In this document: one piece after another, positions 14,993 to 59,989 of the stretch
Position numbering within the stretch: the stretch's first letter is position 1
Layout of the letters: each line of letters starts with the position of its first letter
Origin: a virus
Lineage: Duplodnaviria; Caudoviricetes
Length of the DNA: 60,088 nt
Reading direction: 5' to 3' (one strand)
IMG/VR virus record: IMGVR_UViG_3300005758_000016
Coordinates: 1-60,088 of that record
Translations under genes and position numbers: made by a program
The notes under the pieces: model-generated
Told to the model about the DNA's origin: nothing
Databases searched by the model: none
Seen by the model: the letters and a program-made list of their open reading frames with translations, nothing else

Positions 14993-15522
14993 TAGAATAG
15001 TCCCGGAAAGTACGTTGGTATAAAATTATAGCACGGAAAAGGCTCGCGTGCTAAATTTATCATAGTTAGGTCAAAACTAACTGTATCGCTATTGTAAGTA
15101 GCAGACGTAATATAAAAATCAGGAAAGCTTGCTTCCACCACGTCTGGCGAACCGCTTAATACTAGTTCAATTTTTACTCGTGTAGGTTTAGTTAGCTGCA
15201 CACGAACTAGTTCAATAGCTTCTCGTGTTACATACTGTAGTGTTACGCGACACTGACCTACGCCTGTATCTTGTTCTTCTGGCAGGTCAATTTGTAGTGG
15301 TAAAAACACATAATCACTGCCACGGCTAGGCACTCCGTACACTACTTCCTCGTCCGTGGTAAGCGCAGCCAATCTTTGAGTATAACTATCTGCTAGCTTA
15401 AAAATTGGCGTGTTTGGTGCATCTGGATCATATATTGTAAGCAACATTATAAGATTCTCGTCAGTTTCTGACGAGAACATAGCACGAATAGCCGAGGCAC
15501 TTAGTGTACTTAATCTGCTCAT
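14992..15522 (-). CDS. Minor tail protein (gpL/DUF1833-like)
   Basis: Position and motifs (YVFLPLQIDLP..EPFP..F.P..FPGLF). Confidence 0.7.
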   Translation of the reverse strand: MSRLSTLSASAIRAMFSSETDENLIMLLTIYDPDAPNTPIFKLADSYTQRLAALTTDEEVVYGVPSRGSDYVFLPLQIDLPEEQDTGVGQCRVTLQYVTREAIELVRVQLTKPTRVKIELVLSGSPDVVEASFPDFYITSATYNSDTVSFDLTMINLAREPFPCYNFIPTYFPGLF

Positions 15523-15887
15523 GGTAATACTTCTAGGTTAAGCTGTGTTGTCCAGTATCCTGGTGCAAGATACTGTAGCTGATACAAGTCCCCACTACCT
15601 TGTGGTACAATACGTACTTCTACTTGTTGGTTGGTACGTGGATGTGGGAATAGAAATCGTCGTGTACCACGCAGGTCGTTGGTAATAAAATTTTGTAATG
15701 TAGTTACCTGCTGAGTACTAAGTATAAAGCTAACACTTAGTGTGCTTGGTCGGTTACCACGATAGCGTTGTTTGGCTGGACCGCTATCCATGGGCGAACG
15801 TAGTATGTTCGCACCATGGTTTTCGGTATAGCCTTTTTGTACGCTTTGTGGAAACCCACCGGCTGTTGGCCAAGTGGGTATTGCCAT
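15519..15887 (-). CDS. Distal tail protein (gpM-like)
   Basis: LRSPMDSGPAKQR..F.FPHP motif; follows tape measure gene. Confidence 0.7.
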   Translation of the reverse strand: MAIPTWPTAGGFPQSVQKGYTENHGANILRSPMDSGPAKQRYRGNRPSTLSVSFILSTQQVTTLQNFITNDLRGTRRFLFPHPRTNQQVEVRIVPQGSGDLYQLQYLAPGYWTTQLNLEVLP

Positions 15888-35417: not shown

Positions 35418-35450
35418 AAATAAACCCCGAGATAATCGGGGTTTATTTTT
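35416..35450 (+). terminator. Intrinsic terminator (near-identical copy at 37057-37090)
   Basis: AAACCCCGA-GATAA-TCGGGGTTT followed by U-tract. Confidence 0.8.
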
Positions 35451-35601
35451 GCTGCTTATATAAGCACATGCATATATAAGCAACTGCTTATATATGGGCG
35501 CCAATTATACACCTATAATTGTGCCCGTGTCAAGAAAAATCAAAAAACATATTTTGCGTGTGTGGTTGCAAAACAACAGTCTGGTGGTGTATAATATGGA
35601 C

Positions 35602-38259: not shown

Positions 38260-38358
38260 TTATATATATATATTGAAGACAGGGTGACAGCGGGCAGCGT
38301 CAAGCTGATACGTCTTAATTGTGGAGAAAATGCACTCCGAGCCACAGCCCCGAGCACA

Positions 38359-38541
38359 CTAAAGCGAAAGCTATCAGCTACTTGCTGGTAGTGCTAAGCA
38401 AAAACAGAAGTTACCGTTGTGCCAACCCCTATGCGATCTTAGTTCAGACAGTGCAATCGCCGCACTAGCGTTAGGATGTACCGGCAGTGTGGGCCAGTTC
38501 GCAGCTCAGGGTTTTGCTTGCAGTGATAGCTTTCGCTTTAG
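38359..38541 (+). ncRNA. Stem-closed structured RNA
   Basis: Perfect 18-bp inverted repeat CTAAAGCGAAAGCTATCA/TGATAGCTTTCGCTTTAG with nested AAGCAAAA/TTTTGCTT; no credible ORF. Confidence 0.6.
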
Positions 38542-38618
38542 GGTGTTATGAGATCATGTTTGATGAATAACAACTTAATGGCCACCGAATACTTCTCTAG
38601 TGGCCGCCCAACCAATAT

Positions 38619-48582: not shown

Positions 48583-49107
48583 ATGAAGAAACCACACAAA
48601 CCAGGACCACAACAGGCAGCACGAATGAACAACATCCGCGAACAAATTGAACTAGATACAGTTGTAGGTAAGATCGAACAACTAAACAAGCCGTTTGACC
48701 TAAGCAAACACTTGCCAGGCACTAGTGCTAGTGATTTACCAAAAGCAATTCCAGATAACGTACAGATTTCGCCAGAAACATTAGCTGCAATCCAAAAACA
48801 ATTTGGTGCAGTTAAACACGATCAAGATAAACTACCACTACACCTTCTTTCCACAGAAGCACTAAACCAAACTGCGGCAGTATTAAAGTTTGGAGCACAA
48901 AAGTATGCTGAACATAACTGGCGCAAAGGCTTTGCATGGAGCCGACCCTTAGCTGCAGCAATGCGTCATCTTACCGCGTTTAATGCTGGTGAAGACCGTG
49001 ACCCAGAATCGGGAATATCACACCTTGCACATGCAGCTTGTTGCATTATGTTTTTATTGGAGTTCGAAAAAACTCACCCACACTTAGATGACAGATACAA
49101 ACCATAA
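48583..49107 (+). CDS. dATP/dGTP diphosphohydrolase (DUF5664-like)
   Basis: K.D..K..L..FGA.KY..NW.KG..AA.RH..DPESG..HLAHA.C...FL. Confidence 0.85.
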   Translation: MKKPHKPGPQQAARMNNIREQIELDTVVGKIEQLNKPFDLSKHLPGTSASDLPKAIPDNVQISPETLAAIQKQFGAVKHDQDKLPLHLLSTEALNQTAAVLKFGAQKYAEHNWRKGFAWSRPLAAAMRHLTAFNAGEDRDPESGISHLAHAACCIMFLLEFEKTHPHLDDRYKP

Positions 49108-49965: not shown

Positions 49966-50295
49966 ATGAGCACATACACACCAGACACCTGGGTAGTACT
50001 AGAATTCGACGCTCCAGAACTGGACACACCAACACGCAAAGTTTTTGCTGGCTGGTACGGTGGATATGCCGGCTCGAATTCGTGGAAACTGAATAGTGGC
50101 ATTACCAACGTTCGCCAGGTAGACGGCTGGTGGGAGTTTGATGGGTACAGTGGCAGTGTGTACCGTTGCCACCCCGACAACTACCACATGAGTAGCCTAA
50201 TGCAAGGCGTGCTGTCGCGCTGGCTAAAAGACGCCGAGACTCGTGGTGATATAACAATCCGAATTTTGAGTCTTGACGAGATCGCCGAAAGTTGA
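49966..50295 (+). CDS. Conserved phage hypothetical protein
   Basis: PD.WV..W.GGY..SW.LNSGI..G.SGS.Y.C; RBS and promoter. Confidence 0.7.
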   Translation: MSTYTPDTWVVLEFDAPELDTPTRKVFAGWYGGYAGSNSWKLNSGITNVRQVDGWWEFDGYSGSVYRCHPDNYHMSSLMQGVLSRWLKDAETRGDITIRILSLDEIAES

Positions 50296-50322
50296 TATAA
50301 TATAGGCTGATTTGGAGAAAAC

Positions 50323-50520
50323 ATGGCAGGCTACACAAAACAGTTTTTAATTGACGCTTTTATGTCACGGTACGTTGCCTGCTCGCTGATTAGCATCGAA
50401 AAGCTGGAAGCATTGGAGCAAATGGCTAGTGACTTCTACGATCAAGTTGGCCGCGACAAGTTTCGCACTTATGCATCGCTAGATGCTGATGCCATTCGAC
50501 TCTACAAACAATCACAATAA
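50323..50520 (+). CDS. Hypothetical protein
   Basis: GGAG RBS; promoter TTGACG..TATAAT. Confidence 0.6.
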   Translation: MAGYTKQFLIDAFMSRYVACSLISIEKLEALEQMASDFYDQVGRDKFRTYASLDADAIRLYKQSQ

Positions 50521-50531
50521 GTCCCGCGACA

Positions 50532-50670
50532 CTTGTTGCCACAGTCCCTAGTGGTCAGCAGTGCACCAGCGCGCTGTATGTGTCCGGCACATACAGGTAA
50601 AACATACGAGTGATGGTGGACTACGTATGCGGACATCTAGACCTGAGGGCTGTCGCCCAACAGTAGCAAG
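50532..50670 (+). ncRNA. Candidate rod-like structured RNA
   Basis: Nested pairings CTTGTTGC/GTAGCAAG, ACAGTCC/GGGCTGT, GGTC/GACC; apical hairpin TGTATGTG/CACATACA. Confidence 0.45.
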
Positions 50671-50698
50671 ACTATATGATGACGCTTTAGGGAGCGTC

Positions 50699-50785
50699 CC
50701 CATATATTAGCACTATGACTAATAAGAAGGAAACCAACACAGTATTGTGTGGCTGGGCCTCACCTGCATAGTGCTAATATATGGG
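50699..50785 (+). ncRNA. Stem-closed inter-tRNA cassette
   Basis: Perfect 19-bp CCCATATATTAGCACTATG/CATAGTGCTAATATATGGG. Confidence 0.6.
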
Positions 50786-50967
50786 CCGGTAGCTTTAAGT
50801 GGTAAAAGCACTAATCCGGAATACCACATCGTACAGACAATACTGTGACTAGTTTAACCTCTACCGCAATTGGGGTCTCGGCATTGACGTCTGGGCTGAA
50901 TTCGAATATATGCTTACGCGATTGGTATAATTTATGGTTGCAGGTTCGAATCCTGCCTGGCCCACCA
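50783..50967 (+). ncRNA. tRNA-like RNA with ~110-nt insertion replacing the anticodon arm
   Basis: Acceptor GGGCCGG/CTGGCCC-A-CCA, D arm GCTT/AAGC, T arm GCAGG-TTCGAAT-CCTGC; 185 nt long. Confidence 0.8.
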
Positions 50968-51079
50968 TATATTAGCATAATTGACGGGTATGGCGGTAGA
51001 GAAGCTGTATTCGGTTATTTTGACGAATAGCGAAAGGTATAGCGTCAACTATACTGATATTGATTGTGCTAATATATGG
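50965..51079 (+). ncRNA. Stem-closed inter-tRNA cassette
   Basis: ~20-bp CCATATATTAGCATAATTGA/TTGATTGTGCTAATATATGG. Confidence 0.6.
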
Positions 51080-51159
51080 TTGCAACCAGGAATAAAGCCT
51101 GTCTTAGACAGTTACTCAAGGCTCTACCCCATCCGTTAAATGTGGTTAGGAGAGTAACA

Positions 51160-51288
51160 CCATATTTAAACACTCTCACCGTAGGTTCAAGTGACAGTCT
51201 GCTTGACTAGCAGGGCACACGGAACGGTACAGCTTAGTCAGCGTTACGGAGTATGAACTGGTAACACCAGTAGAGTGTTTAAATATGG
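51160..51288 (+). ncRNA. Stem-closed cassette
   Basis: Perfect 17-bp CCATATTTAAACACTCT/AGAGTGTTTAAATATGG. Confidence 0.6.
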
Positions 51289-51372
51289 TCTGAACTTGAC
51301 GGTGGGCGCGACCGCCGAATCCAGTAGCAATAGGTCAGTAACTACGGGCATGTTGCGACCCGCAGACCATAA

Positions 51373-51519
51373 CCCACAAGTAAGTAACCTCGATATACTA
51401 CACTGCCTAGACCTGTCGCTGCTTCACTGCCCTGAGGGAGTACGCTGAGTGCAAGGCCACTGAGTACAAGCCTGTAGAACCGGCAGATAACTACAGGATG
51501 GAGGTTACTTTCTTGTGGG
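51373..51519 (+). ncRNA. Stem-closed structured RNA
   Basis: CCCACAAG-T-AAGTAACCTC/GAGGTTACTT-T-CTTGTGGG. Confidence 0.55.
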
Positions 51520-51609
51520 CACTTCACTGATAAGGAAGACTGGTCGCCTGTATTCAAGCGGCTAGTGCCCACAACACTTTTACCCAACAACCAACGGTTG
51601 CCTGGGCTG

Positions 51610-51644
51610 GGCCAACACCTAACCGTGTTGGCCTTTTGTTTTTT
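51610..51644 (+). terminator. Intrinsic terminator
   Basis: GGCCAACAC/GTGTTGGCC followed by TTTTGTTTTTT. Confidence 0.8.
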
Positions 51645-51684
51645 GGGCTTGATCCTAAACCGCAAATGTTATATAATAGTGGCT

Positions 51685-52689
51685 ATGAATATGTTTAATC
51701 AATCCGTTAATCGCATCGGCTTTGCGTGCAAAATCAACGAGTCACACGACAAGGCCTGGCCGGGTCTTAATACCGGCACGACCACTATTACCTGGCTTAA
51801 CAACCAGCCTAAGCAAAAAGCTGAAGAACGGCTGTGGAGTATCATGCGTAAAAATACTGCTGCGGTGTTGGAACAAGTGCGTTGGCTTAGTAAACAGCCT
51901 CCACACCTACGTATGATGCGTATTAGCAGCGATTTGCTGCCAGCATACACCCACGACGACTGGGCCTACTTTTACTGGCAAAATGATGTGCTGGGTGAAC
52001 TAGAGTCCAGATTTGGCAAGATTGGTGCACTAGCTCGTGAACACGATGTGCGACTCTCATTCCACCCCGGCCAGTTCTGTGTGCTTGCTAGTGAAAATCC
52101 ACAGATTGTGGAAAACTCAATTATGGAGTTTGAGTATCACTGCGACCTGATTCGTTACATGGGTTACGGTCGGCAGTTTCAGGACTTTAAGTGCAACGTG
52201 CACATTGGCGGCAAGCGTGGCCCTGACGGTATCAAAGCCGCTATGCGTAAGCTCAGTCCCGAAGCACGTAACACTCTTACCATCGAAAACGCCGAATTTA
52301 CGTGGGGTCTGGACGCTAGTCTGGAACTAGTCGATACTTGTGCACTTGTGCTAGATATTCACCACCACTGGATTCACAGTGGAGAATATATCACACCGGA
52401 CGACCAACGCTTTAAGCGGGTATGCGATAGCTGGCGTGGTGTACGTCCGGTAATTCACTACAGCGTAAGCCGTGAAGACTGTTTAGTTGACCACGATCCT
52501 ACGGTGAAACCAGACTTGAAACAACTCAAGTCGCTAGGCTTTACCTCCGCCAAGCTGCGTGCTCACAGTGAATACTACTGGAATACCGCTTGTAATGAGT
52601 GGGCACTCAGCTTTGTTCCACATGCGGATATTATGTGTGAGAGCAAGCAAAAGAATTTGGCTAGTTTCAAGTTGGCCGAACAGCTGTAA
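51685..52689 (+). CDS. uvsE: UV damage endonuclease
   Basis: RIGFAC, RISSDLLP, RLSFHPGQF.VL.S, IEN, LDIHHH, HYS, RAHS, DIM.ESK.KN. Confidence 0.9.
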   Translation: MNMFNQSVNRIGFACKINESHDKAWPGLNTGTTTITWLNNQPKQKAEERLWSIMRKNTAAVLEQVRWLSKQPPHLRMMRISSDLLPAYTHDDWAYFYWQNDVLGELESRFGKIGALAREHDVRLSFHPGQFCVLASENPQIVENSIMEFEYHCDLIRYMGYGRQFQDFKCNVHIGGKRGPDGIKAAMRKLSPEARNTLTIENAEFTWGLDASLELVDTCALVLDIHHHWIHSGEYITPDDQRFKRVCDSWRGVRPVIHYSVSREDCLVDHDPTVKPDLKQLKSLGFTSAKLRAHSEYYWNTACNEWALSFVPHADIMCESKQKNLASFKLAEQL

Positions 52690-52753
52690 AAATTTAGCGT
52701 TGATGCCCCAGTGCTTGTCGTGTATAATAATACTTTATTGATTAGGAAAGACC

Positions 52754-52894
52754 ATGAGAGTTTTCACAAAAGTTAATGACAAGCTGGCTTGTTGGGATGT
52801 ACCGGGTTGTGACTACGAAACTGCTATTGGTCTAGTGCGCGATGAACTTGGTGTTGGTCATAAACCTGTTATCCTAGCACTTGTAAAATACTGA
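52754..52894 (+). CDS. 46-aa hypothetical protein
   Basis: AGGAAAG RBS; promoter TTGATG..TATAAT. Confidence 0.5.
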   Translation: MRVFTKVNDKLACWDVPGCDYETAIGLVRDELGVGHKPVILALVKY

Positions 52895-52998
52895 TGTTGA
52901 CGCACACTGCTTAACATAGTATAATAATGTTTCTGATCTTGCTTCCACCGACAGATCCTTATATCGGGGAGATTTCGCACTACTCTAAAAAGTGCTAT

Positions 52999-53077
52999 CC
53001 GAGTGTGGGAAAGTCTGGTTTAATCCGTCACTTTTGGGAAGTGAAGATCGAAGGTTCGAATCCTTCCACTCGGACCA
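52999..53077 (+). tRNA. tRNA-Pro(UGG)
   Basis: Cloverleaf, loop TTTGGGA, CCA. Confidence 0.9.
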
Positions 53078-53260
53078 TTTTAGATTGCTCGCTGCTCGAT
53101 TCCGATTCAGTTACGGAACCTTGCAGACCTGAGACACCTAACACCCGGGAAGGTTAGGTGGTATGGTTTGAGTTCTAGTATAGGTGGGCGTCATGAACCT
53201 GGTAAGCTAGAACCACAGGCTTAGCGGCCTGGGTAGTAAACAGCCAGCAATCTAAAATGG
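53075..53260 (+). ncRNA. Stem-closed inter-tRNA structured RNA
   Basis: CCATTTTAGATTGCT/AGCAATCTAAAATGG enclosing hairpins TTCCG/CGGAA, CACCTAAC/GTTAGGTG, GTTCTAG/CTAGAAC, CAGGC/GCCTG. Confidence 0.65.
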
Positions 53261-53341
53261 GCGTGTGGTGTAATTGGTAGCCACGCTGGTCTTAGAAGCC
53301 AGTGCGCAAGCGTGTGAGTTCGAGTCTCACCATGCCCACCA
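53259..53341 (+). tRNA. tRNA-Leu(UAG)
   Basis: Cloverleaf with variable arm, loop CTTAGAA. Confidence 0.92.
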
Positions 53342-53345
53342 ATTC

Positions 53346-53419
53346 GGGGATGTAGTTAAATGGGATAACACTAGCTTTGCAAGCTTGGGTTGAGAGTTCG
53401 ATTCTCTCCTTCTCCACCA
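53346..53419 (+). tRNA. tRNA-Ala(UGC)
   Basis: G3:U70 pair, loop TTTGCAA. Confidence 0.92.
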
Positions 53420-53429
53420 AAGGATTTAT

Positions 53430-53552
53430 ATGAAAACACGAAAACCACGGAACCACGTTGCTCTAGCGTTAATGAAACGCGGTGGCGCTGGTTCACATAA
53501 GAAAACCCACAAGCAGCTTCGTGGACCCTGGAAGCGCAATCTGGATCGGTAA
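53430..53552 (+). CDS. 40-aa basic peptide
   Basis: AAGGA RBS; MKTRKPRNHVALALMKRGGAGSHKKTHKQLRGPWKRNLDR. Confidence 0.55.
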   Translation: MKTRKPRNHVALALMKRGGAGSHKKTHKQLRGPWKRNLDR

Positions 53553-53617
53553 CTCAATGGTAGAGTACCCGGCTTTTAACCGGTAAGTTGTGAGTTCGAG
53601 TCTCACCCGTTCCACCA
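53543..53617 (+). tRNA. tRNA-Lys(UUU)
   Basis: Cloverleaf, loop CTTTTAA. Confidence 0.9.
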
Positions 53618-53651
53618 TATAAAAGTACATTTTAACAGTGTATTTCTATAT

Positions 53652-53739
53652 GGAACATTGGCCGAGCGGTTAAGGCAAGGGATTGCTAATCCCTCATCCA
53701 GTAATGGGTGGATAGGTTCGACTCCTATATGTTCCGCCA
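53652..53739 (+). tRNA. tRNA-Ser(GCU)
   Basis: Long variable arm, loop TTGCTAA, G73. Confidence 0.92.
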
Positions 53740-53745
53740 AATAAT

Positions 53746-53822
53746 GCAGGGAATAGTGTCAGTGGCAAGCACACTTGTCTGTGAAACAAGAAGTTAGGGA
53801 TCGAAACCCGTTCACCTGCCCA
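53746..53822 (+). tRNA. tRNA-His(GUG)
   Basis: G-1:C73, loop CTGTGAA; irregular acceptor and T arm. Confidence 0.8.
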
Positions 53823-53883
53823 AAAGTATACTTGTTTTTCGAATACTCATATGCTATAATATAGTAAAGTGAGGATTCGAAAA

Positions 53884-54513
53884 ATGATAGTTTTTGCAAA
53901 ACAAATATGTATAAAGTTAGGTATAGAACCTTCCATACAACTAAAGAAGCCTATTAGAGGTTTACCTGGGTTTACTTCTGTACAATTAATAGAAGCATTA
54001 ATATCTACAGACTCTATTAAGGAAGCAGCTGAGTTTCTAGACTATAGCGAAGGGCCTGTAAAAACATCAATTAGGTCACTTTTACAACCTCACTTTCCAG
54101 ATAGGAAATCCAAGTTTGGTACAGGATTTGTTGCTAGATCTTGGAAGTATACACTATTATCAGAAATTGGTTATAAACAATGTACTTGCTGTAATAAAGT
54201 CTTACCAGTAGAAGATTTTAAAGCAAGAGCTAAAAATACTGATAACCTAGGCGAAGCGTGTAGAAACTGTATTAAAGCTAAAAAATCTTTGGAGAGGCAT
54301 TATATTCAAGAAAGGACACCAGAGTGGTCTGATCTTGAGCTTATCTCCAAATTCTACAGTAATTGTCCCAAAGGTTATCATGTAGACCATATAATACCAT
54401 TACGTGGTGTTTTGATTAGTGGACTCCACGTTATAGAGAATTTACAGTATTTACCAGCAATGGAAAATATTGCTAAGAATAATGCTTTCAATATTGAAAT
54501 ATTTAATACCTAG
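53884..54513 (+). CDS. HNH endonuclease
   Basis: CxxC..CxxC; HVDHIIPL..GLHV..NLQYL..N. Confidence 0.85.
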   Translation: MIVFAKQICIKLGIEPSIQLKKPIRGLPGFTSVQLIEALISTDSIKEAAEFLDYSEGPVKTSIRSLLQPHFPDRKSKFGTGFVARSWKYTLLSEIGYKQCTCCNKVLPVEDFKARAKNTDNLGEACRNCIKAKKSLERHYIQERTPEWSDLELISKFYSNCPKGYHVDHIIPLRGVLISGLHVIENLQYLPAMENIAKNNAFNIEIFNT

Positions 54514-54519
54514 GTTTAT

Positions 54520-54738
54520 ATGTCTGACCCTAAGCTGCAGGAATTGCTAGACAAAGAAGCTAATCTTGCAAATCGTCGTGAATTAGTTCACAAGCAGATC
54601 AAAGCGGCGCGTGGTACTACACCGCCACTGTGCTGGGGACTAGACGATTGCAGTACACAAATCATGAGTACGTGCCCTTGGCGCATTGATTGCGACGGCT
54701 ATGAGGCTGTACACTGGCAAGAAAAACGTCCTTGGTAA
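54520..54738 (+). CDS. Hypothetical protein
   Basis: ORF with CWG.DDCS..CPWR.DC. Confidence 0.55.
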   Translation: MSDPKLQELLDKEANLANRRELVHKQIKAARGTTPPLCWGLDDCSTQIMSTCPWRIDCDGYEAVHWQEKRPW

Positions 54739-54742
54739 TCTC

Positions 54743-54818
54743 GCCGCGGTAGCTCATCAGGTAGAGCAGCAGACTGAAAATCTGTGTGTGGCTGGTTCGA
54801 GTCCAGCTCGTGGCACCA
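54743..54818 (+). tRNA. tRNA-Phe(GAA)
   Basis: Cloverleaf, loop CTGAAAA. Confidence 0.92.
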
Positions 54819-54842
54819 CCTATAACATAAAAGAACTATAAT

Positions 54843-55064
54843 ATGCCCTGTTATAAATGCAGCAACGGTAAGTACCGTTACGGTAATCGTGGTCGTTGTC
54901 AGTTTGACACACTCCAAGCCTGCCGAGCAGCAGAAGCTGCCATCCACGCACGTAAACCCAAAAAAGACATGACAGACAGCAACAGCACTACTAAAGGTGA
55001 CTGTGGTAGCTGTGGTGGTTGCCAACATTGCGACTGCCGTGATGACTGTAAGAACAAAAGCTGA
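54843..55064 (+). CDS. Small Cys-rich basic protein
   Basis: MP..KC..GKY..G..G motif; metallothionein-like Cys tail. Confidence 0.55.
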   Translation: MPCYKCSNGKYRYGNRGRCQFDTLQACRAAEAAIHARKPKKDMTDSNSTTKGDCGSCGGCQHCDCRDDCKNKS

Positions 55065-55134
55065 CGTAGCTCAAAGGCAGAGCAGGGTCTTGATAAGGCC
55101 CAGGTTGAGATCTCGGAATTCTCCGTCAGTACCA
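55060..55134 (+). tRNA. tRNA-Ile(GAU), atypical T loop
   Basis: Loop TTGATAA; T loop CTCGGAA. Confidence 0.8.
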
Positions 55135-55241
55135 AATCCGCCTTCTCCCGAGGTACGGTAAGTCCAGGACACGCGGACTCAAAAACGAAGTGGGAGCCAG
55201 TGGAAGCCTGGCACCCCTACACACAACACACAGGAGGTCAC

Positions 55242-55499
55242 ATGACCAATAAAGAATATCTTAAAAGCGAACGCAATCCGTTCGAAATTCGCACCCGTAT
55301 GCTAGAATTGGCTCAAGAATACTTGGAGTCACAGTACGAGGCCAACATGGAGTTTGCTCGTCAGGCCTGGCTAGAAGCCATGAAGATCGGAGCAGCTAGT
55401 CTAAAAGATTGGGAGCAGTTTGCTCCACAAAAGTACGACTTTGCAGAAATCACAAAGAAAGCACAGGAGCTGTACGGTTTTGTACAGAACAAAGCGTGA
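55242..55499 (+). CDS. Conserved phage hypothetical protein
   Basis: AGGAGG RBS; NPFEIR..ML..A..Y..A.ELY.FV. Confidence 0.7.
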   Translation: MTNKEYLKSERNPFEIRTRMLELAQEYLESQYEANMEFARQAWLEAMKIGAASLKDWEQFAPQKYDFAEITKKAQELYGFVQNKA

Positions 55500-55675
55500 G
55501 CGCACTACAAGGCGTGTTGCGAGTGCTAAAGGCGGCATTCAGCGACACAGACGACTTGGAGTCGTGGCTACGTGATCGTAATCCACAAAACGAAGCAGAG
55601 CTAAACTACTGGATTGACCAGTACGAGCGTTATCAGCGCAACAAGCAAAGTTTTGGTAACGACAACATGATTTAA
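55496..55675 (+). CDS. DUF3563-like small protein
   Basis: GTGA coupling; LE.WL..RNPQ..AEL.YW..QY. Confidence 0.5.
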   Translation: MSALQGVLRVLKAAFSDTDDLESWLRDRNPQNEAELNYWIDQYERYQRNKQSFGNDNMI

Positions 55676-55746
55676 CGCGGTGAGTCAGGGTAGAGGCAAG
55701 TCTCATAAGCTCCGCCTAGTTGGTTCGAGTCCAACCACCGCAACCA
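55676..55746 (+). tRNA. tRNA-fMet(CAU)-like, degenerate
   Basis: C1:A72 mismatch, loop CTCATAA, good T arm; reduced D arm and weak anticodon stem. Confidence 0.65.
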
Positions 55747-55747
55747 C

Positions 55748-55822
55748 GGTTTTGTAGCACAGTGGTAGTGCAGCGTCTTCATACGGCGTTGGTCGTTAGT
55801 TCGAATCTAGCCAAAACCACCA
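55748..55822 (+). tRNA. tRNA-Met/Ile2(CAU)
   Basis: Cloverleaf, loop TTCATAC. Confidence 0.85.
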
Positions 55823-55952
55823 ACAAAAATTTAAACTTGTTATGCGGTGCAAAACACTGTATAATTATTGTTTTCAGTGAGAGAGTTATGCAATCGCATA
55901 CTATGATTTAGAAATTTGCATTTGCTCTCTCCCTGTTTTCCATGTATAATAC

Positions 55953-56136
55953 ATACTTAAATTAAACATTCTGACCATAGCGACAGAAGCCAGTTACTTC
56001 ATAACTTAACGTACTATGATGTAACGACTTTACCGCCGAATTGGTCGCGGCAGTGGTTTAGGCGTACAACCACTCTAATCCAAAGACACCAGAACTGTTT
56101 TCGAACATTCTTGGTCAGTGTGTTTAATTTAGGTAT
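55953..56136 (+). ncRNA. Y RNA-like (Yrl-like) RNA 1
   Basis: ~25-bp terminal stem; inner GAAGCCAGTTACTTC...AACTGTTTTCGA; promoter TTGCTC-17 nt-TATAAT at 55922-55950; upstream of Ro60. Confidence 0.65.
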
Positions 56137-56210
56137 AGTGACGAAAAGGGTAGCTCCCCTGCCACTGCTGATCCAGTGGCTAGTCCAATTTTCTCGATCA
56201 GGAGGTTCCA

Positions 56211-56915
56211 ATGAATATTGGAATTTATGCTCTATATTGGTGGGAGCAAGACATAGTGTATGTCGGAAAAAGCAAAGATTTAAATCTTCGTAAGTACGAA
56301 CATTTAAGACTAATGCAAACTGGAAAGCATACAAAAAAGGTACAAAGTGCTTTTGACTTGTACGGGTTACCAGATTTCATCACAGTACAGCTTTGTGATA
56401 TTGCACAATTAGATGAATTAGAAGTATTTTGGATACAAGAACTAGATGCTTTGGGTTTATCTGGATTAAATAAATGTCCAGGAGGGCAAGATGTTGGTAG
56501 AGATACAACGCACTCAGCCTCCAAGTTTTCTCACCACCAAATACTACAGGTAGTAGACTTATTAATACAAGGTGTACAATACAAAGATATTGTAGATATT
56601 ACCGGAGTATCTAAACCAGTAGTAAGTACCATACTAAATCAATCAAAACACACTTGGATACCAGCAGAGCTAAAAACTGCACTAGATATAGAAAAGTCTA
56701 GAAGAATGTTGTTACCTGCACTGGATAGTTCTACTAAAAACTACTTTATAAAGAGTCCTAATGGTCGTATCTATAAAGTAGATAATATATCCGAATTTGC
56801 CAGAAATCATAACCTTTTGGGCACAAAACTAAACGAAGTTTTGAGAGAAAAACGTAACCAACATTGTGGCTGGACACGGCCTACTGAAAAGGATTTGCTA
56901 AATGTCGTCAATTAA
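56211..56915 (+). CDS. GIY-YIG endonuclease
   Basis: GIY..YVGKS..R..H..E..N; C-terminal DNA-binding-like region. Confidence 0.8.
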   Translation: MNIGIYALYWWEQDIVYVGKSKDLNLRKYEHLRLMQTGKHTKKVQSAFDLYGLPDFITVQLCDIAQLDELEVFWIQELDALGLSGLNKCPGGQDVGRDTTHSASKFSHHQILQVVDLLIQGVQYKDIVDITGVSKPVVSTILNQSKHTWIPAELKTALDIEKSRRMLLPALDSSTKNYFIKSPNGRIYKVDNISEFARNHNLLGTKLNEVLREKRNQHCGWTRPTEKDLLNVVN

Positions 56916-58212
56916 TCGTAAAAATAAATTTGCTGCCGCTAATAGCGTGGGAACACAAGTACCAAGTATTAGTGCAGAAAATCAATTGCGTAGGGTGACG
57001 TTAGCATCAATGTTATACGAAAACCAGTTCTACCTAGACGGTAAGTCCCACGCAGAATTGGTGCGAGATCTTGTAGCCCGAGTTAGCCCAGAAAAGGTTG
57101 CCGACTTGGCTGAAGTGGCGCGAAGCAAATTTAAGCTGCGTCATATTCCTCTGCTGCTTGCCCGTGAACTGGCTCGCAGTGGTCGCCTACAAGCACAAAC
57201 GCTGACTAATATCATTCAGCGTCCGGACGAAATGTCCGAGTTCCTGTCAATCTACTGGCAGGAAGGCAAAACTGCTGTGTCTAACCAAATCAAAAAAGGT
57301 TTGGCGGCTTGTTTCCACAAGTTTAACGAGTACCAGCTTGCCAAGTGGAACAAGAACCGTGCCGCGATTAAGCTACGCGACGTGATGTTCTTGACCCACC
57401 CTAAACCGCAGAGTGCTCAACAAGCTGAACTTTTCAAGCGAATTGCTAGTGATACGCTTGAAACCCCAGATACCTGGGAGGTGCAACTGAGCGCAGGCGC
57501 AGACAAGTGTGAAACATTCACACGACTTATCCAAGAAAACAAACTTGGTGCTCTAGCTTTCTTGCGTAACTTGCGTAACATGACACAGAGTGGCGTAGCG
57601 GAGTCCCTTATCCGTAGTTACGGCTCCAACGTAGATGTGTCACGAGTACTGCCGTTTCGCTTTATTGCGGCGGCACGCATTGTTCCTCAATACGAGGATA
57701 TGTTGGAACAAATGATGTTCCGAGCACTTGCCACAGTACCTAAACTGCCTGGCAAGACTGTGTTAGTTATCGACGTGAGTGGCTCCATGTTTGGTACTAA
57801 CATCAGTGCAAAAAGTGACCTAGACCGCTTTGACGCGGCCGCAGCACTGGCAATTCTTTGCCGTGAAATCTGCGAGACTGTAGAAATCTACTCGTTTAGC
57901 TACGATGCCGTACGAGTCGCACCTCGTCGTGGATTTGCGCTGGTAGAAGCAATTAGTGCTTCGCAGCCTCACGGAGGCACACAGCTAGGCACAGCAATGC
58001 GTACAATTGACTCACAAACTGCTTACGATCGTGTAATCGTATTTACCGACGAGCAAAGCTATGACCGCCCACAATCGCCGCGCGGCAAGGGTTATCTGGT
58101 GAACGTGGCCAGCTACCAACACGGCGTGAATCATAGTGCTTGGCATGAGATCAATGGCTTTAGTGAAGCCATCATTGACTACATTCAAGCGTTTGAGGAG
58201 TCAAACCAGTAA
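56902..58212 (+). CDS. Ro60/Rsr TROVE-vWA RNA-binding protein
   Basis: E..FY, RPDE, KF.EYQLAK, TWE..LS, LRNLRN, LPFRF, DVSGSM (MIDAS), TDEQ. Confidence 0.92.
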   Translation: MSSINRKNKFAAANSVGTQVPSISAENQLRRVTLASMLYENQFYLDGKSHAELVRDLVARVSPEKVADLAEVARSKFKLRHIPLLLARELARSGRLQAQTLTNIIQRPDEMSEFLSIYWQEGKTAVSNQIKKGLAACFHKFNEYQLAKWNKNRAAIKLRDVMFLTHPKPQSAQQAELFKRIASDTLETPDTWEVQLSAGADKCETFTRLIQENKLGALAFLRNLRNMTQSGVAESLIRSYGSNVDVSRVLPFRFIAAARIVPQYEDMLEQMMFRALATVPKLPGKTVLVIDVSGSMFGTNISAKSDLDRFDAAAALAILCREICETVEIYSFSYDAVRVAPRRGFALVEAISASQPHGGTQLGTAMRTIDSQTAYDRVIVFTDEQSYDRPQSPRGKGYLVNVASYQHGVNHSAWHEINGFSEAIIDYIQAFEESNQ

Positions 58213-58272
58213 TGGTCTAAATCCACACTAACAACCGTAGCCAGTCGGTGTTTCGCAGTGGTGCTCTAAGCT

Positions 58273-58373
58273 AAGGGCTTAGATTTGTATATGGTGATAG
58301 AAACGGTTACTTCTTCAATTGAGCTGAAACCAACGTTCCGTTTCGATTTGTTCCTATACAAATCTAAGCCCTT
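58273..58373 (+). ncRNA. Y RNA-like RNA 2
   Basis: 19-bp stem AAGGGCTTAGATTTGTATA/TATACAAATCTAAGCCCTT; inner GAAACGG-TTACTTC...CCGTTTCGA. Confidence 0.7.
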
Positions 58374-58443
58374 TGCACTTTTAGCGGTTACTTCTAGACT
58401 TGTAATCTAACCATAATGTCCGCTAATACTTATTCAAGGGCTT
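58366..58443 (+). ncRNA. Y RNA-like RNA 3
   Basis: TTAGCGG-TTACTTC-TAGA-CTTGTAA-TCTA...CCGCTAA; outer AAGCCCTT/AAGGGCTT. Confidence 0.6.
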
Positions 58444-58447
58444 TTAT

Positions 58448-58521
58448 ATCTCGCTAGTGTAATGGCAGCATACCAGTCTCCAAAACTGTTGGTCGGGGTT
58501 CGAGTCCCTGGCGGGATGCCA
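58448..58521 (+). tRNA. tRNA-Trp(CCA)
   Basis: Cloverleaf, loop CTCCAAA, G73. Confidence 0.9.
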
Positions 58522-58574
58522 AAATTTGTATTTGATTTGTTTTGCAAATCTTGATATAATTATTCTTTTAAATC

Positions 58575-58657
58575 GGAGTAGATGGAACAATGGCGTTCTA
58601 GCCGGCTGTAACCCGGTGGCCTCTGGCAGGTAGGTTCGATCCCTACCTACTCCACCA
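58575..58657 (+). tRNA. tRNA-Tyr(GUA)
   Basis: Variable arm, loop CTGTAAC. Confidence 0.88.
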
Positions 58658-58714
58658 AAATTTAACTTGATTTTTGTTTCCTTATATAGTATAATATATT
58701 TTTGGGAGACAGAA

Positions 58715-59386
58715 ATGACTGAAATTTTATCAAAAGTCATAGAAGCTCTTGGATTTGCCCCTAATGATACTATAAAAAAGAGGCACGGAGATTCAAGAGA
58801 GCTAACTAATAAAGAGTTTGTAGAAGCAATACTAGAGACTGATTCTGTACCAGAATTGGCAAATAGATTAAATATTGGTGAGCAAACAGCTAATAGAATT
58901 ATTGCAAGAGTATTTATTCCGCTATTCGGTAAACGTACTGGTGGAGGAGATACTTGGAAGTTAGCATTGTTAAATAATGCTGAATTAAAAAAGTGTTCCT
59001 GTTGTAGCTCTATATTAGAACATACTTGCTTTAGTAAAGACTTACATAACTTTGATGGACTATCTGCAACGTGTAAAACTTGCAAATCAGATTTAAATGC
59101 TGAGTACTATAATAGGCACAAAGATACTTACCATAAAAAGTATATAGACGAGCACAGAGAAGAGTATAATGCTAGAACGGCATTACGTAGAGCTGCTAAA
59201 TTAAGAGCCACACCTAATTGGGCCAATTTAGAAAATATAAAGCAAATATATGTAAATTGTCCAAAAGGACACCATGTAGATCATATTTATCCTTTAACCA
59301 GTGATTGGGTGTGCGGTCTACACGTAGAAGATAATTTACAATACCTTACAGCAGAAGAGAATTTGCGTAAGGGAAATAGAAGATAA
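58715..59386 (+). CDS. HNH endonuclease (paralog of 53884-54513)
   Basis: ATP.W..Y.NCPKG.HVDHI.PL..GLHV..NLQYL. Confidence 0.85.
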   Translation: MTEILSKVIEALGFAPNDTIKKRHGDSRELTNKEFVEAILETDSVPELANRLNIGEQTANRIIARVFIPLFGKRTGGGDTWKLALLNNAELKKCSCCSSILEHTCFSKDLHNFDGLSATCKTCKSDLNAEYYNRHKDTYHKKYIDEHREEYNARTALRRAAKLRATPNWANLENIKQIYVNCPKGHHVDHIYPLTSDWVCGLHVEDNLQYLTAEENLRKGNRR

Positions 59387-59387
59387 T

Positions 59388-59471
59388 GCGGCTGTGGTGG
59401 AATGGTATACACATCAGACTTAAACCCTGATGCCTTCGGGATTGAGAGTTCGAGTCTCTCCAGCCGCACCA
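59388..59471 (+). tRNA. tRNA-Leu(UAA)
   Basis: Variable arm, loop CTTAAAC. Confidence 0.9.
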
Positions 59472-59475
59472 AAAC

Positions 59476-59549
59476 GCGTGCATAGTTTAATGGTAAAATC
59501 AGTGCTTGCCAAGCATTAGTTGAGAGTTCGATTCTCTCTGCCCGCACCA
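59476..59549 (+). tRNA. tRNA-Gly(GCC)
   Basis: Cloverleaf, loop TTGCCAA. Confidence 0.9.
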
Positions 59550-59558
59550 GGAGATAGC

Positions 59559-59741
59559 ATGACCCACAACTTAGACGAGTTACTGCTCTCAATGTTAGGC
59601 TCATACGAACTGGTACAACAGTGGTGGAATTCACCAAACACTGCGTTTGGTGGTGATACACCACAGCAGTGGTTTCAGGATCAGGCCCTGCAAGCACAAG
59701 TTGTGAGTTATATATACAAACACAGCGGTTATTGGATCTAA
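59559..59741 (+). CDS. Small protein resembling Xre/MbcA/ParS antitoxin C-terminal domain
   Basis: WW.SPN.AFGG.TP motif; AGGAG RBS. Confidence 0.55.
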   Translation: MTHNLDELLLSMLGSYELVQQWWNSPNTAFGGDTPQQWFQDQALQAQVVSYIYKHSGYWI

Positions 59742-59808
59742 AGTGTTCATGGACGCACGTATGCCTGTCACGCATAAAGAAGGGGATCGTTACCCCTTAG
59801 ATCCGCCA
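59734..59808 (+). tRNA. tRNA-Asp(GUC), atypical T loop
   Basis: Loop CTGTCAC, G73, T loop ATCGTTA. Confidence 0.88.
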
Positions 59809-59887
59809 GTATTTGGTAGTTAGTATTAAACTACCCGTAGCCCACCCGTTGGATACGACAAGTCCAAGCTGGAGCCGTAACCAGCAC

Positions 59888-59988
59888 TATTATTTTAGCA
59901 TACTACTATCCATTATAAATAAGCAGGAGAGATACCTGTTGTCCAGCGATTGTCTCAACGGGGTAAGGGGTAGTGTGCTAAACTAATA
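59888..59988 (+). ncRNA. Stem-closed inter-tRNA cassette
   Basis: TTTAGCATACTACT/GGTAGTGTGCTAAA ending just before tRNA-Val. Confidence 0.5.
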
Positions 59989-59989
59989 T

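Follow-up and report, generated by a model that had tools for sequence, protein, structure and literature searches.

In phage T4, the small stable RNAs known as species 1 and species 2 are co-transcribed with the phage transfer RNAs (tRNAs) and excised by host tRNA-processing enzymes, and RNase III reportedly has a role in the processing of the T4 tRNA precursor. A helix of ~20 bp formed by the sequences that flank a stable RNA in a polycistronic precursor is found in the RNase III processing stems of ribosomal RNA (rRNA) operons and of phage early transcripts. In phage T5, the deposited record (NC_005859) annotates eight "stable RNAs" in the tRNA region: rna1, rna2 and rna3 are tRNA-like, and rnaIII, rnaI, rna2H, rnaIV and rnaX are labelled "with unknown functions". 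Here we analyze a viral contig from IMG/VR (IMGVR_UViG_3300005758_000016; 60,088 bp, estimated 57% complete; the whole stretch is called the window below), in which spacers of a tRNA array are closed by long helices (~17-22 bp) that borrow the ends of the neighboring tRNAs. We propose that these stem-closed spacers, which we call cassettes, probably encode small stable RNAs like those in the T5 annotation, and that they are exchanged between tRNA slots and between phages.

The structural proteins of the window match phage families, the major tail protein being ~33% identical to those of T5-like phages (Demerecviridae), and judging by its sequence the window represents part of the genome of a phage that is uncultured and distantly T5-like. 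Its tRNA array runs on the + strand from 49.8 kb to the window end, with 15 tRNAs called by ARAGORN, to which Rfam adds two above cut-off and one just below. Nothing close was found among deposited phage records: megablast of 50500-54000 gave no match, and blastn matches were limited to tRNA and UvdE pieces. Our comparison set consists of ~95 related viral loci, fetched via the neighboring UvdE and Ro60 genes.

The original prediction, made from the letters alone, had singled out five spacers as stem-closed, and helices of 17-20 bp are indeed present at these positions. Left arms begin on the upstream CCA and right arms finish on G1-G2 of the next tRNA or tRNA-like RNA, as is clearest for the spacers that start at 53075 and 53615 and end at 53260 and 53653. 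With the last base of tRNA-Pro at 53077 and that of tRNA-Lys at 53617, their CCA forms the first three helix pairs; on the other side, where tRNA-Leu begins at 53259 and tRNA-Ser at 53652, the right arms stop on base 2 of the next tRNA. An inverted-repeat search also recovers the identical 13-nt arm that two spacers had been said to share, namely those at 50699 and 50965, as well as the three related stems named elsewhere (38355-38376/38524-38545, 51373-51394/51498-51519 and one near 59890-59985). The cassettes and the RNAs that adjoin them are as follows.

50699-50785, + strand: cassette A, with a 19-bp perfect closing helix (inverted repeat 50699-50717/50767-50785, 19 nt, 100%) and a 49-nt core; 3 homologues, 4/32 predicted pairs compensatory.
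50783-50967, + strand: tRNA-like RNA tX1, ending in CCA; Rfam tRNA match of 35.8 bits, 6/24 pairs compensatory.
50965-51079, + strand: cassette B, the first 13 nt of its closing helix being the same as those of cassette A (inverted repeat 50964-50981/51063-51080, 18 nt, 94%); 4 homologues, 6/34 pairs compensatory.
51078-51162, + strand: tRNA-like spacer RNA tX2, ending in CCA; called by neither ARAGORN nor Rfam, and without a homologue in the loci fetched.
51160-51288, + strand: cassette C, with an 18-bp perfect closing helix (inverted repeat 51159-51176/51272-51289, 18 nt, 100%) and a 95-nt core; RNA-library contigs of relatives span 51161-51371.
51287-51372, + strand: conserved tRNA-like RNA tX3; 5 distinct homologues, 9/32 pairs compensatory.
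51373-51519, + strand: cassette D, found as an inverted repeat (51373-51394/51498-51519) whose 22-nt arms are 91% complementary and do not belong to the CCAUAU type.
52999-53077, + strand: tRNA-Pro(UGG), called by ARAGORN; by helix position the cassette E helix opens with three pairs formed by its CCA.
53075-53260, + strand: cassette E, 186 nt long, folded into six helices, with blocks of unpaired bases that do not vary (inverted repeat 53075-53094/53241-53260, 20 nt, 95%), a family of its own by covariation and covariance model.
53259-53341, + strand: tRNA-Leu(UAG), called by ARAGORN; by helix position its first two bases, G1 and G2, are paired to the two C residues in the terminal CCA of tRNA-Pro.
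53543-53617, + strand: tRNA-Lys(UUU), whose 3' side is the commonest cassette slot among relatives (19/25 distinct contexts filled).
53615-53653, + strand: cassette F, an "empty" scaffold by sequence and helix position, with a 17-bp helix (one mismatch) and a 5-nt loop.
53652-53739, + strand: tRNA-Ser(GCU), called by ARAGORN; by helix position its first two bases close cassette F.

Helices of this kind stand well above the background. Counting perfect stems of 12 bp or more whose loops do not exceed 300 nt, we find 19 in the window against 0-4 in 30 first-order Markov shuffles, and those with long loops concentrate at 38.3, 50.7-51.3, 53.1 and 58.3 kb. The bare hexamer CCATAT is at chance level in the window (28 found, 26.4 expected); the signal lies in the helix rather than in the hexamer. 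In the ~95 related contigs, a helix of 17 bp or more opens at 80 of 803 distinct tRNA CCA ends but at only 91 of 18,640 other CCA sites, and at least 70 of those 91 are themselves of the CCAU...AUGG type and lie beside tRNA-like RNAs that ARAGORN does not call. Helix lengths counted before de-duplication are bimodal, at 5-10 bp and 17-22 bp. One ~17-bp helix consensus (CCAUAUUUWARYAYAYU paired with ARUGUGYUWAAAUAUGG) is common to the 144 distinct CCAT...ATGG cassettes, and pairing falls off past position 17, a length that fits about two helical turns as in RNase III substrates. Within positions 5-17 of 138 helices there are 108 G.U pairs to 30 A.C pairs, as counted by a detector that treats the two symmetrically; from this excess it follows that the pairing is maintained on the transcribed strand.

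The cores are under selection too, as cassette E makes plain. Its outer helix and five inner helices covary, and its unpaired blocks are invariant (33 invariant columns). RNAalifold predicts 40 pairs in E and 30 of them show compensatory change; the original prediction had been staked in advance on conservation of the stems by exactly this kind of change. Paired cells reach 94.6% in E, against 69.1% in shuffles (0/500 attain the E value) and 37-43% when the partners are slid, and the covariation score is 0.71 against 0.05-0.13. E matches no Rfam family. A motif scan picks out 61 viral contigs, and the covariance model of E matches 44 of 62 sources (the pattern loci plus the window) with 47-198 bits in the sense orientation and at most 34 bits in antisense. 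E is oriented like the tRNAs in 39/39 loci that contain tRNAs. In 20 of the 39 copies neither side is abutted by a tRNA called by ARAGORN, and in several phages E even sits between protein genes, with no adjoining tRNA and with its CCAUAUUG...CAAUAUGG (CCAUAU...AUAUGG) ends retained. Since the ends persist without a neighboring tRNA, the terminal motif is part of the cassette. Helices and cores are thus selected RNA structures on the tRNA strand.

The enclosed loops had been described as structured and mutually unrelated, and clustering and covariation reveal just that: conserved cores with no relation to one another. The cores of 214 distinct CCA-anchored elements, 12 of them shorter than 50 nt, fall into 129 clusters. 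This larger set includes chance hits, for example a 6-member cluster within the UvdE coding region, and for this reason our counts rest on the 144 CCAT...ATGG elements and on the anchoring test with 803 tRNA ends. Several core clusters are found in more than one tRNA slot, and this clade carries up to 6 cassettes per 20 kb. The occupancy of four slots among relatives is as follows.

After tRNA-Lys(UUU): a cassette in 19/25 distinct contexts, from 15 core clusters.
After tRNA-Thr(UGU): a cassette in 18/32 distinct contexts, from 9 core clusters.
After tRNA-Pro(UGG): a cassette in 13/35 distinct contexts, from 4 core clusters.
After tRNA-Tyr(GUA): a cassette in 11/32 distinct contexts, from 9 core clusters.

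A sign of exchange comes from a 94-kb DNA contig of a relative, from a public wastewater run. Over 50965-51289 (B, tX2 and C) this contig has 0 differences from the window in 325 nt, while its flanking pieces differ at 62/422 and 120/873 positions (~14%). Because the block is identical between such divergent flanks, B-tX2-C appears to have been exchanged between phages recently. The same contig joins 50678 to 50965, without A and tX1, and 53067 to 53275, without E; similarly, contigs from two RNA runs join 51373 to 51516, without cassette D. As these contigs come from relatives, the missing pieces reflect variation between phages and not splicing.

How does this compare with T5? In both phages, the RNA genes in question, annotated in T5 and predicted here, lie within the tRNA cluster, on the same strand as the tRNAs. 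A ~20-bp helix formed by the flanks closes T5 rnaIII, rnaIV and rna2H, and the rnaIII helix opens with the CCA of the preceding tRNA-like RNAI and finishes within tRNA-His. The succession rna1, rnaI, rnaIII, tRNA-His in T5 resembles the way in which tRNA-like RNAs and cassettes take turns at 50.5-51.5 kb of the window. A further T5 element, absent from the annotation, is 107 nt long and closed by a stem of 20 bp; located on the minus strand at 35427-35533 of the T5 record (15428-15534 of locus L099 in our set), it lies after promoter P14a and directly 5' of tRNA-Tyr, ends in AAAUAUGG and has a right arm that stops on the first G of the tRNA. An all-position stem scan of T5 at threshold 13 was mostly noise, and from it we used only stems of at least 19 bp. 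The annotated ends of rnaIII, rnaIV and rna2H fall in or at the helix with 3' overhangs of 2, 1 and 3 nt, which is what a staggered double-strand cut would leave. The differences are of scale and of evidence: the T5 RNAs are only a handful and lack a shared CCAUAU consensus, whereas more than 100 core clusters share one helix here, and the T5 RNAs are annotated as detected, whereas our cassettes are predicted. E was also considered as a homologue of T5 rna2H, which occupies a similar position relative to tRNA-Ala and tRNA-Leu, but cmsearch found none, either at default settings or with filters off.

Other structured RNAs are less similar. The rRNA-operon and early-transcript stems processed by RNase III enclose the stable RNA itself, whereas in the window the helix encloses the spacer between tRNAs and borrows the CCA and the G1-G2 of its neighbors. 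GOLLD and ROOL are described (PMC5737381) as structured RNAs that are often near tRNAs and in prophages, possibly co-transcribed, ROOL being 581 nt; these are far larger and form one conserved family each, unlike the many small unrelated cores on one scaffold helix seen here. No GOLLD or ROOL match was obtained with Rfam in 37000-60088 or among the matches listed for 7 relatives. More generally, the Rfam scan of 37000-60088 gave only tRNA matches above cut-off, a scan of 50500-51660 with E values up to 5 gave no non-tRNA match, and in the 7 related loci those listed among 154 matches, 4 lower-scoring ones aside, were all tRNA or transfer-messenger RNA (tmRNA).

To explain these results we propose that the cassettes would be co-transcribed with the tRNAs from sigma-70-type promoters and released by host tRNA- and double-strand RNA-processing enzymes. 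RNase P would cut at the right border, and the left border, together with the upstream tRNA, would be freed either by a staggered RNase III-type cut within the helix or by a cut just past the CCA. The leftover helix could then shield the core from exonucleases and allow it to accumulate. We infer these roles of RNase P and RNase III from the geometry, from the annotated ends of the T5 RNAs and from a weak hint in RNA libraries. Contigs of relatives from such libraries span 51161-51371 as well as E and its surroundings and further stretches of the array, and in two RNA runs of one study the contigs stop at 53249, followed by presumed adaptor letters. This point lies in the right arm of E, 11 nt from the helix base, and would fit, as a weak hint, cleavage roughly one turn of the helix away from its base. 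For polycistronic tRNA transcripts of E. coli, initial removal of a terminator hairpin by RNase P has been described (PMC4176162). The cores would be independent functional RNAs because covariation conserves them, and the helix alone would serve for processing and insulation, given that hairpins without a core, 53615-53653 for example, occur. The modular platform envisioned by the original prediction is therefore supported by comparison as far as compensatory change, the swapping of unrelated cores and the CCA...UGG clamp of T5 are concerned; excision by the enzymes named would be the part that we infer.

Several observations weigh against the proposal that the cassettes are processed stable RNAs of the T5 kind. 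RNase P should be impeded when the 5' leader is tied up in a helix. A phage RNase III was not found in any of 5 near-complete relatives, so that the double-strand cut must be assigned to a host enzyme. The RNA-run contigs come from relatives, mostly 90-95% alike, and show cover rather than RNA species or ends, and RNA libraries can carry DNA contamination; uncovered stretches (for example 53864-54210 and 56293-56986) are uninformative, and depth was not used for gene ranking. The T5 ends are those given in the GenBank annotation. Cassettes C and D and the 38355 element have no homologue in the loci fetched. Run against T5 with filters off, the E covariance model finds closing stems only, at 13.2 bits or less, and no core match; the link to T5 is thus one of architecture and not of shown descent. 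Aeromonas phage AhP_Mru1, a cultured T5-like phage tried as a second example, has no convincing CCA-anchored cassette: of its 355 CCA sites, 2 carry a stem of 14 bp or more, both of them weak. Given the few RNAs of T5 and the absence of convincing ones in the Aeromonas phage, the present clade would represent a large expansion on a common scaffold.

Could the helices instead be mere punctuation for tRNA maturation, as processing sites or folding insulators around functionless passengers? A bare hairpin such as cassette F between tRNA-Lys and tRNA-Ser (17 bp, 5-nt loop) is what this would look like, and the 12/214 elements under 50 nt and the single helix consensus across unrelated cores point the same way. 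We consider it unlikely, because the cores are themselves conserved (E has 30/40 covarying pairs and 33 invariant columns), and because the E helix and core are retained between protein genes, where no tRNA needs processing, 20/39 E copies having no ARAGORN-called tRNA abutting them. The same two facts, conserved covarying cores and E copies without an adjoining tRNA, are left unexplained by the other suggestion of the original prediction, a folding device that juxtaposes tRNA ends. Cassettes might also be selfish mobile DNA, miniature inverted-repeat or homing elements that target tRNA gene borders and whose RNA structure is a by-product. In fact, much of the exchange described above would suit such elements: cassettes are present or absent at the same slot, the same core occurs in several slots, the block 50965-51289 is identical in the wastewater contig (0/325) between diverged flanks (62/422 and 120/873) while A+tX1 and E are missing from that contig, and homing-endonuclease genes lie in the array (e.g. 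GIY-YIG, 56211-56915). Yet the 108:30 ratio of G.U to A.C indicates that pairing is kept on the transcribed strand only, and free insertion either way would not yield E copies co-oriented with tRNAs in 39/39 loci. Moreover, the E arms covary instead of preserving one recognition sequence, as do the inner helices, and no transposase-like gene was seen among the ORFs (open reading frames) scanned. An origin of the structures as by-products of mobile DNA is therefore quite improbable, although mobility and RNA function can coexist.

A further possibility is raised by the ORF at 56902-58212, which matches TROVE (E 2.4e-12), VWA_2 and the Ro60 vWA domain and is thus a Ro60 gene inside the tRNA array. 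Cassettes could then be Y-RNA-like partners of the phage Ro60, the terminal helix being the Ro60 site and the variable cores tethering effectors. In Y RNAs the 5' and 3' ends pair to form a closing helix, and their genes are located next to Ro60, in phages also (PMC4201824, PMC12135203); in YrlA and the phiLo Yrl RNAs, as in the cassettes, an end-formed terminal helix goes with a variable interior, and these Y RNAs have tRNA-like modules and Ro60 as a neighbor. Stem-closed RNAs at 55953-56136 and 58270-58376 flank the Ro60 gene, and homologues of both were found only in Ro60-bearing loci. For the cassette family as a whole the case fails: TROVE is absent from 5/5 cassette-carrying relatives that are at least 93% complete, while control genomes did match, and most cassette-bearing loci have no Ro60 within 10 kb. 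Unlike Y RNAs, cassettes A-F have no GNCGAAN0-1G motif (PMC4201824) near their 5' ends, CGAA occurring only within the B core, and the sole Rfam YrlA match, 25.1 bits against a cut-off of 69, is at 55691-55801 and overlaps tRNA-Met. We regard a Y-RNA role of the cassettes as very improbable, and Y-RNA identity for the whole family was dropped on the 0/5 near-complete relatives with TROVE and the lack of a YrlA match above cut-off.

The two RNAs that flank the Ro60 gene are a separate matter. A conserved GUUACUUC stretch is found in both; 58270-58376 has compensatory change in 13/31 pairs, and 55953-56136 comes close to the Ro60 motif in the literature, except that two bases precede its last G. 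These two are candidate phage Y RNAs. The AGTTACTTC motif is at chance level in the window (21 found, 19.3 expected). The weak YrlA match is underlain by a tRNA-like element at 55677-55747, uncalled by ARAGORN, which directly precedes tRNA-Met; its T arm is good, and its acceptor stem finishes with CCA.

Eight structured RNAs, cassettes A-D among them, are packed into a 1.1-kb array at 50.5-51.6 kb, bracketed by a consensus promoter and an intrinsic terminator. These and the remaining features of the window are as follows.

50273-50301, + strand: sigma-70-like promoter (11/12 consensus positions), preceding a 65-aa ORF and the non-coding RNA array.
50520-50702, + strand: conserved structured RNA with a 3' hairpin and then the CCA that opens the first cassette helix; 4 distinct homologues, 17/41 predicted pairs compensatory.
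51609-51644, + strand: intrinsic terminator-like hairpin and T run found by sequence scan, at the end of the non-coding RNA array.
52897-52925, + strand: sigma-70-like promoter (11/12), preceding tRNA-Pro, cassette E, tRNA-Leu, tRNA-Ala, tRNA-Lys, cassette F and tRNA-Ser.
59890-59989, + strand: related stem-closed RNA immediately 5' of tRNA-Val, its left side without a tRNA CCA; 5 homologues, 3/37 pairs compensatory.
38355-38545, + strand: stem-closed element upstream of tRNA-Glu, with a different arm sequence (inverted repeat 38355-38376/38524-38545, 22 nt, 95%).

Among the RNAs of the array, tX1 has acceptor, D and T arms but, instead of an anticodon arm, a stretch of 114 nt, and scores 35.8 bits against the Rfam cut-off of 29 (50783-50964). 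Neither ARAGORN nor Rfam calls a tRNA at 51078-51162 or 51287-51372. From their sequences, tX1, tX2 and tX3 would thus be tRNA-like RNAs and not tRNAs; tX1 and tX3 are reminiscent of the "tRNA-like stable RNAs" rna1 and rna2 of the T5 annotation. The RNA at 50520-50702, of ~180 nt, directly follows the 65-aa ORF and has no Rfam match.

Several protein genes accompany the array. At 48583-49107 lies a dATP/dGTP diphosphohydrolase N-terminal domain (E 1.6e-35), and at 51685-52689 the UvdE UV-damage endonuclease (E 4.8e-39), common to at least 577 viral stretches. The GIY-YIG homing-endonuclease-like gene (56211-56915) is located between the upstream stem-closed RNA and Ro60 and is absent there in relatives. 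Two AT-rich paralogous ORFs (53869-54513 and 58667-59386) have no Pfam match, and by eye show an HNH-like motif near the C-terminus. Relatives also have a circularly permuted (two-piece) tmRNA gene in the tRNA array, just past the cassette that follows tRNA-Thr; the window stops before that position. The tmRNA loci are L086 14044-14431, L087 13965-14331, L020 18560-19022, L010 17964-18344 and L007 16743-17153. The best full-length model is betaproteobacterial in L086 and L087 and alphaproteobacterial in L007, L010 and L020, and the tmRNA type may be a hint at the host.

RNA genes of this kind were already known from T5; the consensus scaffold, the scale, the exchange of cassettes and family E appear to be unpublished within the literature searched. 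That search, whose reach probably did not extend to older work on T5, returned no paper that deals with the T5 stable RNAs or with spacers closed by stems in the tRNA arrays of phages. Because the turnover of cores between slots and phages resembles that of accessory genes, we also entertain, as a doubtful though possible extension, that the tRNA arrays are an exchangeable library of more than 100 unrelated structured RNAs on one universal, host-read scaffold helix, swapped like accessory counter-defense genes. The cores might then act as decoys, sponges or adaptors against host RNA-binding or RNA-cutting defenses, and the scaffold would be a portable device to express and stabilize them. If the scaffold does provide processing and stability, it would be a ready tool for the expression of small RNAs from tRNA operons. 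For the phages themselves, the orphan RNAs of T5, annotated "with unknown functions", now gain a comparative data set in the form of a consensus helix, more than 100 core clusters and a new family, E, in at least 44 viral contigs. This makes it possible to address how non-tRNA RNAs are excised from phage tRNA precursors, which partners the cores have, and why they are swapped so frequently.

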